Of a stretch of DNA of 42,504 nt, positions 6,001-24,000 are shown one piece after another. The position numbers are program-made. Source of the DNA: Nanobdellati archaeon (lineage in GTDB: Archaea; Nanobdellota; Nanobdellia; Woesearchaeales; JAADFO01); contig JAADFO010000016.1 in NCBI GenBank assembly GCA_013152815.1, forward strand, positions 1-42,504, read 5' to 3'. Every line of letters begins with the position of its first letter. The first letter of the stretch is position 1.

Positions 6001-9000
6001 ACCTTCGGGCAGGCATGGCATCCTCTGGATTCCTCATCAACGTTACGTTTGGCTGGGGCAACCTTTCCGGAGGGAGCATCGCAGCGTTTGACCCTGGCGT
6101 CGGCATCATCGGACCTGATCTCATCCTGAAGACCAGGGTTGCCATCACCGACTATGCTGCCAGCGAGGCAGGAAACACCTACCTGGACATCACCCAGGAC
6201 ATGACCGACAACGATACAGGGACGACGAGAGTGGCTGCGGCCAAGAGCGGTGACACGGTCAAGGTCTTCAACATCCTCAACAGGACCGACATCACCCACT
6301 ATGATGAGATATCATTGCTCATCTACCCGACCGCCATCGACGCTGATCCTTACCAGCTCCTCTTCATGGCCTATAACACCGATAACGTGACCGTGCAGAG
6401 CACCCTCACCAACTACACCCTCACAAGCAGCCACCTCAACCGATGGGTAAGCATCAACATCACCGATATCGCCCATCTGCAGGACGGGTTCGGGTACCTC
6501 CGGGTCAGGATGGCTCCCAACGGTTCAGCGCTGGGCAACAACAAGAAAGTGACCATCGCCGAGATCAGGTTCAACCTCACCGACCGGACCCCTCCAAATA
6601 TAACGCTCCATGCACCTGTCCAGGGAGACAACCTCTCTTCCACGAGCACACTCTTCAACTTCACCGTCACCGACCTTGTGGATGACTTTATCACCTGCAA
6701 CGTCACGCTTGACGGGAACGTCAACCTCTCTTCTGTCGAGGTGGCCAACGGATCCTACTACAACTTCACCCGTGAGCTGAGCGAAGGCATCCATACCTGG
6801 AATGTCACCTGTATCGACGACGGCATGAATACCGCAGGCAGCGGAACCCGAAACTTCACGGTCATCGGCCAGGCCACCGGCATGACGATAACCATAGCTC
6901 AGGACAACAGCAGCCTCAACATCTCCTGGGACGCTAAAGCCTATGCCGCAGAGTACCTTCTCTACGTCTCAGATAACTATAGCATGTTCTCGACCGCACC
7001 GAACGTCACGTTGAGCACAGCAAACTATACCGACAGCTCATCGGCAGGAGTGACCCAACGGTACTATCGCATCGGCATCAGGAAAGGAAAGGCGAACATC
7101 ACCTCAACCAACACCCTGGGAAAATATCAGGTGGAGCTCCTGACCGGCTTCAACCTGGTCAGCACCCCGCTCAACCTGTCCCGCCAGCGCCTGGGAGACG
7201 AATCCCTGTACAAGAACCCGCTGGTCGTCTCTCCCAGGGGATCGGTGAGGAGCATCTACCGGTTCAACGAGAGCAACGAGGCCTTCGAGAAGGTGGACTA
7301 TCTCGACGGTTTCGGCTGGTCACAGGCGACCGGGTCAGAAGACTTCCTCTTCCTGAACAGCACCCCCGGCTACTGGTTCGAGACCAACCAGAGTGCCAAC
7401 GTAACGTTCCTCGGCATGGTTCCGACCTGGAACCACAGTGTAGCGTTGGCGGTCTCCTGGAGCGTGGTGGCATGGCATTCCATCCAATCCCCGATGCTAC
7501 CGACCTTCGGTGAGCCGCCCACCTATCCCATCGAAGTGACGCCGAGCGACTCAGTCTCCACAATATATACCTATGATGCCTGGGCAGACCACTTCAACAA
7601 GACCGACCATTACAACGGATGGGGCTGGTTCCCTGCCACAGGAGATGGCGGCTTCGTCCGGCTGGAACCGACCAAGGGCTATTATTTCAAATCAATCCAG
7701 GAATCGAACTGGACCATGGAGACCTACCGATGAGCAGACGAAGACGGGCAGAAGTGAAGGGAGAAACGATGAAAGGAACAAGGAAAAGGATGAAGAAAAG
7801 GATGAGGGAAGGGCTGAGGGAAGGAAGGAAGGGTTTGCCAGGTTCCCTGCTGTTCGTCGTTCTCCTACTGTTCGTCATTCCCCTGCTGCTCACGGCATCC
7901 CCTGTATCGGCCATACCCGTCCCACAGGGCATCGATGGGTTTGTCCTGGGCATGGACAACATCACCCAGGCACCTGCAGGGACGGCTTTCAGCATCATCA
8001 ACCTGGAGACAGGAAAGGTGATAAACGGCTTCACCGGCATGGGCAACCTTCCTGGAAGGTATTCAGCAGCGGTCCAAGGAACGACAGGTGACAGGATCCT
8101 CATCACCGCAAGCACAGGACAACACATGGCCAACAGGACCGTCAACCTGACCGGGTCGATGCACCAGGTCAACCTGTACCTCAATCTCTCGACCTGGCCG
8201 GATGACGGAAAGAACCATGCCAGACCGAGCATAGCGGTATCGGCACGAAATACTCCTGCCACCGATGTGACAGACCAGACACAGGAGACAGGAAAACGCC
8301 GAGTCCCCCAGACCATGACAAGCCATGCGGTCCCCCAGATCATGATCATCGACGGGTCTGTAGCGAGCGGGAGCGGGATACCCGTCGATGCGGGAGAGGA
8401 AGCAGGAAACCAGGACATCATCATCACCAACCTCAGGACAGGCGAACAGGTAACTGCAGAGAACAGGAAGGCCTATCGTGGAACGACGAGGCATACAGGA
8501 TTCCGTGCAGCCATCAGAGGGAGGACAGGCGATCAGCTCACGCTCACCTATCAAGACAGGGAATCATCACCCCTGCCCTTCGGCAAGGACCAGGCCGGCA
8601 TCGTGATCCAGACGGAAACAACGGCCGACAACGACAAAGAAGGTAAAGAAAACAGCGGCAGGGCAGCAACAGACAGACAGAGGGCAACAGGGCTTCTGGT
8701 CACCGGATGGACAACAGTCCAGCAGGAACAGATTTTGGGAGATGACAACAAGCGTCCGGAAGGAAAGAGACATCCCCTCAAGAGCGCGACATTCTTCCTT
8801 GGCCTGGTCCTCCTGATAAGTGTGGTGTTCTCCTGGAGAACTCCGAAGAAGACAGAAACAGAGCAGACGAAGCAGGACCGACCATGAGACAAGGCAGACT
8901 TTCGGGGACAACCCTGGCAGGCATGACAGGTATCGTCCTTATGTTGGTCGTCCTGTCTACCTTCATCGCAGCCCAACCACCGACACCCCATGGCATCGCC

Positions 9001-21000: not shown

Positions 21001-24000
21001 GGTGGGCGATCAAGGCACCCATAGGAGCCGAGTCAGGCGCCTGCAACGGGTCATTGGTGTTCTCAGCGATACCTGCTTAGGCAGGAGAGACATCGGCAAC
21101 AGGCAACACAATCAACGGCAACAACCAATAACGATCGACAGGAACAGAGAACAATCACCATGAAACGAACCAGACCTGAGGTGGGACCAATGAAATGGAT
21201 CAGAATAGGGAGAGGCTTCACGCTGAGCCTCGTCATCGGGATATTTTTGCTATCGCTCTTCGCGATCTGGACAGTCGCCGATCCCGTCGGACCCACCCTC
21301 AACTACATCTCCCACTCGTCTGGTTCCTCTGCCACCGGTTCCCTGGCAGACAACAGCTCCCACACAGGAGGTGTCATAGCGAAGATGAATCTTGATGTCA
21401 GGCAGCAGAATCCCCACTGGAAGGCCTATGTCGGAAACATATCAGGCAACCTTGTATTGGAGGACGGGTTCAACTACTCAATATATGAATGGTCGCTCAC
21501 ATCGCTGCAGGGAGAGGTCTATGCCACCCGGGCATCGAGCATCACCTGGGGCAGCCTGACCTGCGCCAATATCAGCCAGCTGGATATCGAGATGGCAGCC
21601 ATGAACCACACACCCAGCTATACGCTGGTGGACAACATCTCAGCCACGTTCGATGACGATGCCAACAGCCACGCCCAGTTCTATGCCGGATCGACAAATA
21701 TCGCGGCCAACAGCTGTGATTTCTCCACCAACCTCTATGCCAACGATACTGCCCAGAGCGCGGGAGGTTCAACATGGGAAGAGGTCGTCCTGTTCCAGCA
21801 GAGCAACAATGCGACGGTCTACACGAGCATCATCGACGAGAACAACTACGGCTACGCCAACGGCTCGTTCTTCGACTATGAGATCCTCTTGCCAGAGAAA
21901 GGGGAGCCTACCTTCACCGGTGCGACGCCATATTACTTCTATGTGGAGCTGGTCTAGGGAAGGGATTAGATTGTTGGACAAAAGAGAAGCGTGATGAGCG
22001 AAGGATGAAGAAGCATCATCCCAAGAAGGGAGCAAGACCAAGACCGGCAAAGACAGGAAGACAGGCTTATTCCCGCTATTCCCTCTGGATCGGTGTCTTT
22101 CTTCTCATCATCATATCGACGCTGCAGGGCTGCGCGACGACAGTGACCAAGGAAGAGGCAGCGACGACCGCCCTGCAGTTCGTCCGCGGACGGGTGAGGT
22201 TCTTCCCCAGCGGAGAGAACAGCTCCTCATTGGTGCAGACGACGGTCAAGCTGAGCCCGGACAGCTATGAAGAGACCGGTTTCTATGTCATCATCCTCCA
22301 CGCAGAAGCGACCAAGGACAATAAGACTGTCAAGAACGATTTCACCATCGACGTGGACAAGGGGACAGGGGTTGTCCTTCGGGTGAACGGACAGCCTGTC
22401 GGAAAAGCGCCCTGATGGCTTCTCTTCCTCTCTGCCCTTCTTCTCTGCCCTTCTTCTCTGCCGTTCAGAAGGTGAACAGGCTCAGGCCCGCTGCTGATCA
22501 GTCATCCGGCGACGTCTCACCGACGGCCTCTTCCCGCTGTTGTCTTCTTCCCTGACCGCTTCGCCGCTTCTGTCTTCTGCACGACCTCGAGGGCGAGTCT
22601 CATCCTTTCGAGCGCCTTCTCATTCTCACGCTTATCGATGAAGAAGTCACGGAGAAGACCCATCTTCTTCACCAGCGGCCTGAGATCTTCCCGATCCGCG
22701 GCGATCTTCTGCAAGATGCCCTGGTCGAGTATCCTGGTGAGCAGTGCCAGTGAAGCCGACTCTGCTTCATGCACATCCTTGCCCTGGACCCGATGTTTCG
22801 CCAGCCGAATGAGCTCGTTGTAGAGAGCGGTGAGCTGGACCGATGCAAGAAGCTCGTCCTTCTGCCTGAACAGGTCATAGATCCTGCTGGTCAGCTGGAC
22901 CTCTACCTCCCGGATGGAAGTCTCCTCCATCCGTCGGAGCATGGCAAGCCGGTCGGCATGCCCCTGCAGAAGGTGTTTCATACGCAGCACTTTCCGGGAT
23001 TCCACATAGCCGAAATAGAGCAGCAACTCATAGAACAGCAGAGGGATGACCAGGATCAGGAAAAGGGGCAGCCATATCAATCGCTGGACCACATAGAGAC
23101 AGCTGCCGTAGAGCCAGAGATAGAGCGAGAATACCGAAAGGATGAACAGGAGGAAGCCTAAGAGAGATGTGAGACGCTTGGCACGCTGCTCAAGCCGCCC
23201 CTTTCGATAGACTCCAAGGCGGTACAGGGTATAGTTCATGACCAGCAGGATGAGAAAGAGCAGGAGGAAGAGCAAAGCGAAATAACGGAAGAACCTCAGG
23301 GGGAAGACCCGGCAGTCCTGCATGCAGCCGCAGCCTTCTCCTGCTGAGCAGATCCCGTCCCCGCAACCCACGAGACCAGGATGTTCAAGGAAAGGATAGA
23401 GCGGATATTGGGTGATGGGAGCTATGAGGCAGGCTGCACATGGCCCGCCGCAGTCGATGCCTTCCTCTCCCTGGTTCTGGATGCCGTCGCTGCAGGTGGG
23501 TGCAACACAGGCACGAACTTCTTCGGGCTTTTCCGGACCCTCGATCTTGAGGGACTGGCCAGACCTGAGCGCGTTGGAATGTTTCTCATCACACCTGCTG
23601 GAATCGGTGCATAGCCTATCCTGAGAACCTGCAGTGCAAGGTCCCCAGTCAGTACAGGTCCAGTTCAGCACACAGACACCGGGGATGTGCTGCTTCTTGA
23701 TGCCTGCTCCTTTGCTTCCGGAAGCGCTGGTGGCGCTCTGGCCAGAAGTCTCGCCCGTCGTGCTTTCCTGGGATTCGCCCGTGCCTTCGACGCCTCCGGT
23801 GTCACCGCCAACGCCGCCTGTGGCATCCCCTGCCTCGTCTCCTGTACCCGGGGGGCATGTCCCGCAGTCCTGGGGACAGGAATAGCAGGATTCACCGATG
23901 AGGACAGAGGAACAGATGTCATCCCCGCAGACAAGCGCAGGGAAGATGGTCATGACGATGGTCTCGGTCACGTTGTAGTAGGTGTCGGTAACTCCCAGAA

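Follow-up and report, generated by a model that had tools for sequence, protein, structure and literature searches.

The window analysed here is a stretch of 42,504 nucleotides from a Nanobdellati archaeon (the source genome). It carries seven tandem genes for small secreted proteins, F1 to F7 (Table 1), and the question raised by this locus is what these proteins build. An earlier note had read them as subunits of a donor-strand surface fibre akin to cannulae, TasA and bundling pili. The reading favoured here, which draws on genomes and computer models, is that the F genes probably encode shaft (and probably also minor or adaptor) subunits of a polar donor-strand surface fibre.

Table 1. Features of the locus, given by position in the window and sorted from 5′ to 3′
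Positions	Strand	Feature	Remarks
3..7733	+	Giant Ig-repeat surface protein	5′ end cut by contig end; Big_13, Big_7
7730..8887	+	Secreted protein, C-terminal hydrophobic segment	Start uncertain, open frame from 7619
8884..10671	+	Long IG-family (Ig-like) member	N-terminal passenger + IG body
10868..10875	+	TATA-box-like TTTATATA	Before F1
11113..11949	+	F1, subtype A putative shaft subunit	278 aa
12004..12774	+	F2, subtype B subunit	256 aa
12792..13748	+	IG family, short form	
14090..14599	+	H1, HTH-type protein	Weak HTH/sigma region-4-like matches only
14596..15336	+	F3, subtype B subunit	246 aa
15674..16345	+	H2a, winged-HTH regulator	
16361..17158	+	F4, subtype A subunit	265 aa
17597..18247	+	H2b, winged-HTH regulator	48.6% identical to H2a
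18387..19133	+	F5, subtype A subunit	248 aa; the one modelled
18459..18593	+	F5, predicted arm	Mature residues 1-45
18594..19130	+	F5, core	
19231..19983	+	F6, subtype A subunit	250 aa
20091..21080	+	IG family, second short form	
21160..21957	+	F7, subtype B subunit	265 aa
22005..22415	+	Small secreted protein	Cys right after hydrophobic stretch

The seven F genes are real paralogues, as had been claimed: all lie on one strand and every pair matches by blastp (26-56% identity, E 8e-23 or better). The reported lack of Pfam matches also holds, none coming near a cut-off for F1-F7; no Pfam family is common to more than 2 of 135 F members at E<=1. The C-terminal YYFYVEL attributed to all seven is exact in five, F3 and F4 deviating from it. 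The family comprises 1,547 clusters at 50% identity and is nearly confined to the order of the source archaeon. Signal peptides, judged by alignment of 286 sequences, include a hydrophobic stretch, Ala at -1 (66%) and Pro at +2 (97%); no RR is conserved within the signal region of these sequences, and among the seven only F3 has RR ahead of the hydrophobic stretch. A type IV pilin or archaellin (class III signal, hydrophobic helix retained) was considered and rejected because the conserved Ala-x-Pro site is located downstream of the hydrophobic stretch; no pilin Pfam match was found among the families listed for the 135 members.

The F fold is known as a model: mature F5 is predicted to be a single domain with an N-terminal arm (mean pLDDT 83.9). 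The arm had been described as disordered in the monomer. This stands for residues 13-22 and 36-42 (pLDDT <50) and not for blocks 1-10 and 21-30, which hold short strands (mean pLDDT 75 and 63). The segment that runs from arm motif 2 up to the first core strand has less than 1% gaps per column in the 286 sequences, yet its pLDDT in the monomer is below 50. The Gly of the arm is 98% conserved in the same sequences and is flanked by hydrophobic residues. In 434 sequences, arm positions covary with positions of the C-terminal hairpin (D26-T215, rank 10, z 8.2; E34-H196, rank 22); these predicted contacts fit cis and trans pairing equally, the method being unable to separate them. Both the arm parts modelled at pLDDT 63-75 and the compatibility with cis contacts would suit a monomeric secreted domain whose arm folds on its own core, F-like domains of other proteins then being domain-shuffled relatives with no role in assembly.

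Such F-like domains were found in two main classes, tips and bases. Tips are 28 long ORFs, in 24 of 76 loci, with an F-like core at their C-terminus. The tip core aligns to F from mature residue 43 onward only (hhalign 99.0%), and the arm motif scores 10 bits or more in none of the 28; all 28 CARDB-linked C-terminal cores lack the arm, yet the core stays conserved. The adhesins with this armless domain at their end are as long as 7,579 aa. The tip adhesin is the variable part of the system, and its variable domains include CBM96, Ig and CARDB. Two armless tip genes are present in the source genome, on contig C48 (one armless core at C48:25070-25636), where an armless tip protein shares the passenger of the 8884..10671 product (41.6% identity over 293 aa). 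The truncated giant at the start of the window has no C-terminal fibre domain according to the tip-core and pilin profiles, in contrast to giants in the same position in many relatives. A third fused class (19 of 150 among the matches listed) keeps the entire arm behind large passengers, so that a fused core is not always armless; this class fits a fibre only if side-decoration or self-cleavage is assumed.

F5 was modelled together with the tip core of the source genome. The complex reached an ipSAE of 0.57 (0.57, 0.56, 0.63) against 0.00 for the best of 3 controls, with at least 82% of contacts common to the runs and a partner pLDDT of at least 82. The ipSAE mark was reached by 116/157 solved complexes and 2/215 mismatches; passes at 0.60 or under include only 18 of the 157 solved complexes, and both mismatches. 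The model is weakly suggestive of F5 binding to the tip core; its score comes without a contact list and does not identify the arm as the interface.

The homology of bases to F begins at the arm (hhalign 99.3%). The arm motif scores 12-20 bits in 13/13 bases, with a median of 16 bits in 53 bases; an internal arm copy is clear in 4 of the 53. Their layout is arm, core, usually stalk repeats and a TM helix, followed in some by a DUF87/HerA ATPase. Base and cytoplasmic HerA/VirB4-like ATPase form one ORF in 30 of 54 base-bearing genomes, and the Walker motifs of the base ATPase are intact. Base ORFs do not exceed 1,708 aa, and their ectodomain (about 650 aa) opens with the pilin-like domain. The TM helix is internal in ATPase-fused bases. 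Some bases have no ATPase, such as that of genome G286 (530 aa, TM at 488), a pilin-like domain plus a C-terminal TM segment; those of G159, G026 and G220 have no C-terminal membrane helix. The monomeric alternative, which one fused class retaining its arm would also suit, is hardly probable: it leaves unexplained the conserved armless cores, the strongly conserved arm of bases and the weak complex pass with an armless partner.

No base gene was found in the source genome; an ATPase locus of this genome is broken at contig ends, and we infer that a base exists. From synteny, the gap between the starts of contigs C60 and C76 is predicted to contain a base gene and the remainder of the short ATPase. 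The base ATPase is 44-56% identical to ATPases that end giants of 2,000-5,200 aa in other genomes of the phylum. Members of its family also occur, at 50-59% identity, in records whose titles name Nanohaloarchaea, Micrarchaeota, Aenigmatarchaeota and Altiarchaeota.

Among 301 genomes of the phylum, the pilin profile matches 87, the tip core 68 and the base 54 (a single base in 53); these counts include related genomes, which are not independent, and the sample overlaps the 76-locus set. A strong pilin match (E<=1e-25) is found in 76 genomes; a tip accompanies it in 61 of these and a base in 44. Genome G024 is a single contig, and there a span of 40 kb takes in the ATPase, the base, IG and two each of tips and pilins. 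Tips and bases occur only in pilin-positive genomes, which is partly circular since the pilin profile matches tips and bases too; with a stricter pilin cut-off, 7/68 tip genomes and 10/54 base genomes fall outside the pilin-positive set. Twenty-four of the 68 tip-bearing genomes have no base at E<=1e-20; when five tip-bearing, base-negative genomes were searched again, two had a divergent base and a third a base-like ORF on reading.

An acceptor-only tip, a shaft and a donor base together give the parts list of a polar donor-strand fibre. Each F subunit would be exported by Sec and cleaved, leaving an arm of roughly 45 residues and a beta core of unmatched fold. The Gly-centred strands of the arm would pair along the C-terminal hairpin of the neighbouring subunit on the distal side and so complete its core. 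At the distal end, the fibre would be capped by the last domain of an adhesin, an armless, acceptor-only core; the length of the adhesin ranges from a few hundred residues to several thousand. At the proximal end, the single-copy base would donate its own short arm, be held by stalk and membrane helix and, in over half of the base-bearing genomes, run on into the cytoplasmic HerA/VirB4-like ATPase. The likely job of the fibre would be to reach and hold a host cell. Polymerisation, polarity and length of the fibre, like the role of the ATPase, are inferred. The fibre proposed in the earlier note is retained, on the strength of armless tips, arm-bearing bases, covariation and the weak complex pass; its tie to cannulae, TasA and bundling pili and its antigenic variety are not supported.

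Two other assemblies could use the same parts. One or a few F subunits could join the base to a giant adhesin as a short plug-and-socket linker, a stalk extension rather than a long fibre. Tips, bases and the F5-tip core pairing are explained equally well by such a linker, tips are already thousands of residues long, and some genomes have only one or two free F genes. It is nonetheless unlikely, as free subunits have both arm and core, permitting open-ended chains, and as a genome can contain up to 10 matches, with promoter-like sites and regulators of their own, which would suggest bulk production. Alternatively, arms could be swapped in two dimensions in a surface coat or S-layer-like lattice, tips and bases being inserted adhesins and anchors. 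F subunits are acidic and multi-copy with 8-11 N-glycosylation sequons each, and no DPANN S-layer protein is determined according to the portion consulted of bioRxiv 10.1101/2023.10.27.564410. This is rather improbable given that F is present in only 87 of the 301 genomes and that a subunit with a single arm and a single core, in a system whose ends are acceptor-only and donor-type, would suit a line better than a sheet.

The 8-mer TTTATATA is also found at 13976, 15527 and 17432, each site preceding a gene block; it occurs 7 times in the window against 0.13 expected, a number reached in 0/100 shuffles, and these sites are candidate promoters. A hairpin and T-run (11937-11969) following F1 may allow F1 to be expressed above F2 and IG. 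The paralogues belong to two conserved subtypes (A, B) whose gene order is fixed across genomes, each with its own regulator type: in relatives, the H1 type precedes a subtype B gene 16 times and the H2a type a subtype A gene 29 times. Antigenic variety, the earlier explanation of the paralogues, fits this arrangement poorly. To the two HTH genes already named, H1 is added as a third, and to the two Ig-like paralogues the C-terminal part of the 8884-10671 product. The model of the first short IG protein (pLDDT 92.2) has an Ig domain and a second beta domain, with a conserved N-terminal strand left unpaired; by profile, it is not homologous to F. The 7730..8887 product has an N-terminal domain related to that of the 8884..10671 product. 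Relatives of it and of the lipoprotein-like 22005..22415 product are each present in 1/76 loci.

Most likely, the F proteins are shaft subunits of a surface fibre, not described before, that belongs to tiny symbiotic archaea. The means by which Woesearchaeota and related DPANN archaea locate hosts and keep hold of them are an open question; most of these archaea are uncultured. The F system offers a full, testable parts list with small subunits open to expression and imaging. Tip and ATPase-fused base are its most informative parts: the variable domains of armless tips should point to host surfaces, and through the base the fibre would be connected to an ATPase that is widespread in DPANN and for which an action on hosts has been proposed before.

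Cannulae have calcium sites, and TasA has a dedicated SipW-type peptidase. No profile ties F to cannulae, TasA or bundling pili. The weak CanA/TasA/Hyper2 fold matches reported earlier are absent among those listed in new fold searches, which gave no clear match for F. According to the parts consulted of PMC12518558 and PMC9245690, cannulae, bundling pili and threads (CanA, AbpA, Saci_0406) use chaperone-free N-terminal strand donation, as predicted for F, the donor strand bearing a conserved Gly; homologues of AbpA, CanX and thread proteins are mainly found in Thermoproteota (PMC12518558). F could be read as a divergent member of this group forming an extracellular matrix fibre, being beta-rich, with a signal peptide and an N-terminal strand whose conserved Gly resembles that of cannula donor strands (PMC12518558). 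This is most improbable: the TasA/camelysin profile PF12389 (Peptidase_M73) matches 0/135 F members at E<=1 among the families listed and nothing in the genome, the B. subtilis control being positive; F has no match among sequences of solved structures; and the existence of dedicated tips and of bases in the membrane suggests an appendage anchored to the cell.

The F system resembles chaperone-usher pili in that shaft subunits have an N-terminal extension and the tip ends in an extension-less pilin domain, the arm motif being missing in 28/28 tips. PapH is a groove-blocked terminator at the base of the Pap pilus. Fim/Pap tip adhesins combine an N-terminal binding part with a C-terminal pilin-like domain, as described in part of PMC11821415. 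The F system differs in having no sequence match and no clear fold match to these pili, tips that reach 7,579 aa and a membrane-protein base that often has an ATPase of its own; sequence profiles found no chaperone or usher Pfam in 32 window proteins or 16 neighbour representatives. Pam pili of a CPR episymbiont are donor-strand pili with several pilins in one operon, Sec signals and disulfides (PMC13278184, in part), features shared with the F system, for which strand donation is predicted. Pam pilins have two domains, a donated internal linker strand and predicted chaperones, whereas F has a single domain and an N-terminal arm. Two domains are also present in the IG family of the locus.

Haloarchaeal tafi (TafA/C/E/F) are strand-donation fibres with tip adhesin and anchor, the tip donating and the anchor accepting a strand in the model outlined in the parts consulted of PMC11821415 and PMC12337348. 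Their anchor, like the G286 base, consists of a pilin-like domain and a C-terminal membrane segment. Tafi are Tat-exported, while F has no conserved twin arginine; the F-system tip lacks an arm, which gives the opposite predicted polarity; and TafF is described there without an ATPase, whereas the F-system base is often ATPase-fused. A donor-strand fibre whose base is fused with a HerA/VirB4-type motor was not found in the literature searched, which was open-access and took in few subscription papers.

The base locus of relatives has the layout of the SPEARE-type protein SVXNc_0300 of nanohaloarchaea, which, by its description in part of PMC10266531, comprises a signal, an Ig-type ectodomain, a TM helix, a cytoplasmic VirB4/TraG-like ATPase and a coiled coil and is encoded next to a second ATPase gene; the whole locus was not found in the source genome. 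The F-system base differs by its ectodomain of about 650 aa in place of a single chain of thousands of residues, reach and adhesion being carried by separate shaft and tip genes. Giant adhesins that are single chains in other DPANN genomes have this ATPase at their C-terminus, so the fibre looks like a polymerised SPEARE-type contact protein. It is tentatively proposed, as a possibility short of even, that it is a modular replacement of the DPANN giant contact protein: a new-fold donor-strand fibre with exchangeable giant tips, plugged straight into a membrane-spanning HerA/VirB4-type ATPase, would couple host binding to an ATP-driven machine of the symbiont (secretion, uptake or pulling), and the base would terminate the fibre, its internal arm copy filling its own groove.

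The F proteins (F1-F7 of the window and their relatives, predicted shaft subunits) probably build a polar donor-strand fibre, since the parts that such a fibre requires are found: an acceptor-only tip, shaft subunits that combine arm (the N-terminal segment) with core, and one membrane base that bears an arm. The tip, having no arm, would only accept a strand. Each shaft subunit would donate its arm and accept another in its core. One arm-bearing membrane protein would anchor the fibre. The same arm-core joint could instead build a short linker; this main rival is considered improbable.

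The seven tandem secreted paralogues claimed in the earlier note are confirmed, with pairwise identities of 26-56%. They alternate with three members of an Ig-like family (IG), unrelated to F, and with three HTH-type genes. A TATA-like 8-mer precedes four gene blocks (7 copies in the window vs 0.13 expected). A profile search of 4,982 candidates gave 1,431 F-family proteins at E<=0.001; the family comprises 1,547 representatives at 50% identity. No Pfam family is common to more than two of 135 members, NCBIfam gave nothing for the two proteins scanned, and no description was found in the literature searched. Named matches are chiefly Woesearchaeota, Pacearchaeota and Nanoarchaeota records, some being under other labels. 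F matches occur in 87 of the 301 phylum genomes sampled (a tally that takes in the unpublished G243), of which 86 belong to the order of the present genome. Each of F1-F7 carries 8-11 N-glycosylation sequons; together with the nucleotide-sugar cluster of the window, these suggest that the fibre may be glycosylated.

Across 286 F sequences, Ala (66%), any residue and Pro (97%) come after the hydrophobic stretch. Motif 1 (P-x-G-P plus a short strand) is next and is separated by a variable stretch from motif 2, which is centred on a Gly conserved in 98%. The core begins at an invariant Trp, and between motif 2 and this Trp gaps are below 1% per column. Only one or two residues follow the last strand. 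Mature F5 was modelled by AlphaFold2 (135 rows) (mean pLDDT 83.9) with confidence in the core but not in the arm (below 50 at residues 13-22 and 36-42). Mean-field covariation (434 sequences, effective 375) couples arm and C-terminal hairpin through D26-T215 (rank 10), E34-H196 (rank 22) and, more weakly, T24-Y217 and I35-F198, cis and trans pairing being indistinguishable. Several other covarying arm pairs may reflect subtype phylogeny.

Mapping of 76 loci, drawn from the best 80 of 261 confirmed F matches, placed the F domain inside larger proteins as well. An F-like core ends 28 ORFs (tips) in 24 of these loci. Tips are often giants of 2,000-3,200 aa immediately upstream of pilin (F) genes. 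Their alignment to F starts at mature residue 43 (hhalign 99.0%), and the arm motif is found in none of the 28. CARDB precedes the core in all six tips scanned, with CBM96 also in three of them. Tip cores occur in 68 of the 301 genomes, the longest frame reaching 7,579 aa. The present genome has two armless tips, both on contig C48. The N-terminal 290 aa of one have their counterpart in the window gene at 8884; one passenger thus rides on either an F core or an IG body. The window giant has no F core at its end, and its C-terminal domain is possibly a separate attachment domain. Judged by repeat phase, the end of C76 and the start of C48 could belong to a single gene; no overlap connects these contigs.

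F5 and a C48 tip core, each entered as an alignment, gave an ipSAE of 0.57 (three runs: 0.57, 0.56, 0.63) vs 0.00 for the highest-scoring of 3 controls; the runs have at least 82% of contacts in common, and partner pLDDT is at least 82. Of 157 solved complexes, 116 attain the ipSAE mark, as do 2 of 215 mismatches; these counts are only rough for alignments made here. At 0.60 or below, just 18 of the 157 attain it, and both mismatches. The model hints that F5 may bind the armless tip core.

Fusion does not always remove the arm, which counts against the fibre reading. A third fused class (19 of 150 proteins listed) keeps the full arm behind large passengers. A Nup98-type autopeptidase profile was matched by 7 of 15 scanned (one above cut-off), and an HFS or GFS motif lies 140-160 residues ahead of the core in 14 of 24 examined. 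Proteins with both features include P0136, P0155, P0156, P0179, P0258 and P0274, among others. In P0274 the motif lies 48 residues ahead of the core, so that self-cleavage would free the arm. These fusions could be side decorations or self-cleaving forms.

Thirteen base ORFs start with a hydrophobic segment, motif 2 and a core (hhalign to F 99.3%). CarboxypepD_reg repeats and a TM helix come next, and complete ORFs continue into a DUF87/HerA ATPase. Against the fibre reading, three of the bases read lack a C-terminal TM. Bases occur in 54 of the 301 genomes (single copy in 53), fused in frame to the ATPase in 30. Among 76 genomes with a strong pilin match, a tip is found in 61 and a base in 44, counts drawn from kin and partly circular. 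It also counts against the fibre reading that no base was found at E<=1e-20 in 24 of 68 tip-bearing genomes; in five such genomes searched again, divergent base-like frames appeared in two, and in one more on reading. Self-plugging of the base groove by an internal copy of the arm fits clearly in 4 of 53 bases only, the copy being absent by score in most. The single contig of G024 holds a short ATPase, a base-ATPase and two each of giant tips, pilins and IG genes within 40 kb; the minimal set of G159 is a tip, two pilins, a membrane protein and a base without ATPase. Neither base domain nor ATPase core was found in the present genome. Its contig C60 opens within a short-type membrane ATPase gene, cut just past the TM helix, and C76 opens with an ATPase-like tail, then the coiled-coil gene found after bases elsewhere. 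Going by synteny, the gap between C60 and C76 may contain the base. An unannotated family of 550-590 aa (signal, C-terminal TM; 17 of 76 loci) adjoins ATPase-less bases and is a candidate anchor or assembly factor.

The earlier note's antigenic variety fits poorly with the order of the paralogues. Classed F genes in the 76 loci are 105 of subtype A (as F1, F4, F5 and F6) and 60 of subtype B. B forms one clade of 63 leaves (57 B, 3 A, F2, F3 and F7; FastTree support 1.0); A does not resolve in this tree. The order A-B was counted 38 times and B-IG 29 times; of the HTH-type genes, H2 stands before A in 29 cases and H1 before B in 16. The subtypes look like fixed roles, separately controlled, rather than antigenic shuffling. 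IG, present in 41 of 301 genomes (36 F-positive), is thus not obligatory. Its conserved N-terminal strand is unpaired in the model (pLDDT 92), and IG is a candidate second strand-donating family.

Features of the window and of related contigs. Strand is given where noted.
Location	Strand	Feature
Window 3-7733		Giant protein
Window 7089-7730		C-terminal domain of giant; weakly like protein at 25973-26809 (21% over 140 aa, E 6e-4)
Window 11113-21957		F1-F7
Window 25973-26809	-	278-aa protein
Window 26829-27752	+	Small cytoplasmic repeat domain, also on ATPase tails; recurs beside relatives' F arrays
Window 28473-29741	-	Secreted C-terminal-TM protein; family recurs beside relatives' F arrays
Window 29893-33128	-	Overlapping frames (592 and 648 aa), both matching single 650-844 aa ORFs of relatives, so apparently frameshifted (assembly error or pseudogene); family often beside F arrays
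Window 35128-36255	-	MscS channel; ordinary
Window 36518-37279	+	Endonuclease dU; ordinary
Window 37338-42504	-	Nucleotide-sugar cluster: aminotransferase, RmlD, RmlC-like, dehydratase, nucleotidyl transferase
Window, last 91 bases		Exact overlap with reverse complement of contig C36
G000:C48:27969-52739		Giant frame, 8,257 aa, open at contig end
G000:C30:3971-22600		Giant frame, 6,210 aa
G000:C76:3234-23201		Giant in pieces (2,321, 820 and 3,865 aa), also open
L074:6141-7856; G000:C60:5251-7002		550-590 aa family
L131-L135; G077:C10:173349-176707; G039:C4:36030-37034		HerA/VirB4-like ATPase; phylum frames up to 9,416 aa
G000, present genome; other G, genomes of relatives; L, loci of relatives; C, contigs.

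All 18 ATPase domains aligned, base-fused or short, keep intact Walker A and B motifs. The top NCBIfam matches, to CedD, HerA and VirB4 models, score far under cut-off, and the nearest solved sequences are HerA proteins. Of the 301 genomes, 50 have the ATPase, and 12 of these 50 lack an F match. Five genomes were checked, four of them F-negative: here a TM helix and then the ATPase close frames of 2,000-5,200 aa. These ATPases share 44-56% identity with the first row of an alignment in which base-locus ATPases are included. In G077, a second, short ATPase gene adjoins that of the HerA/VirB4-like ATPase. Among the best 80 of 535 matches are records titled Micrarchaeota, Aenigmatarchaeota, Nanohaloarchaea and Altiarchaeota. 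Nanohaloarchaeal giants have the same layout, a TM helix and a terminal ATPase, according to PMC10266531, where secretion into the host is put forward as their function, as a proposal and not as a result. The layout of SPEARE, the giant contact protein of nanohaloarchaea, is also found outside them.

The F system would work similarly to chaperone-usher pili, yet is not a member of them; the same holds for tafi, as described in excerpts of PMC11821415 and PMC12337348. The base has the layout of the SPEARE-type giants (PMC10266531, in part), without their single-chain length.
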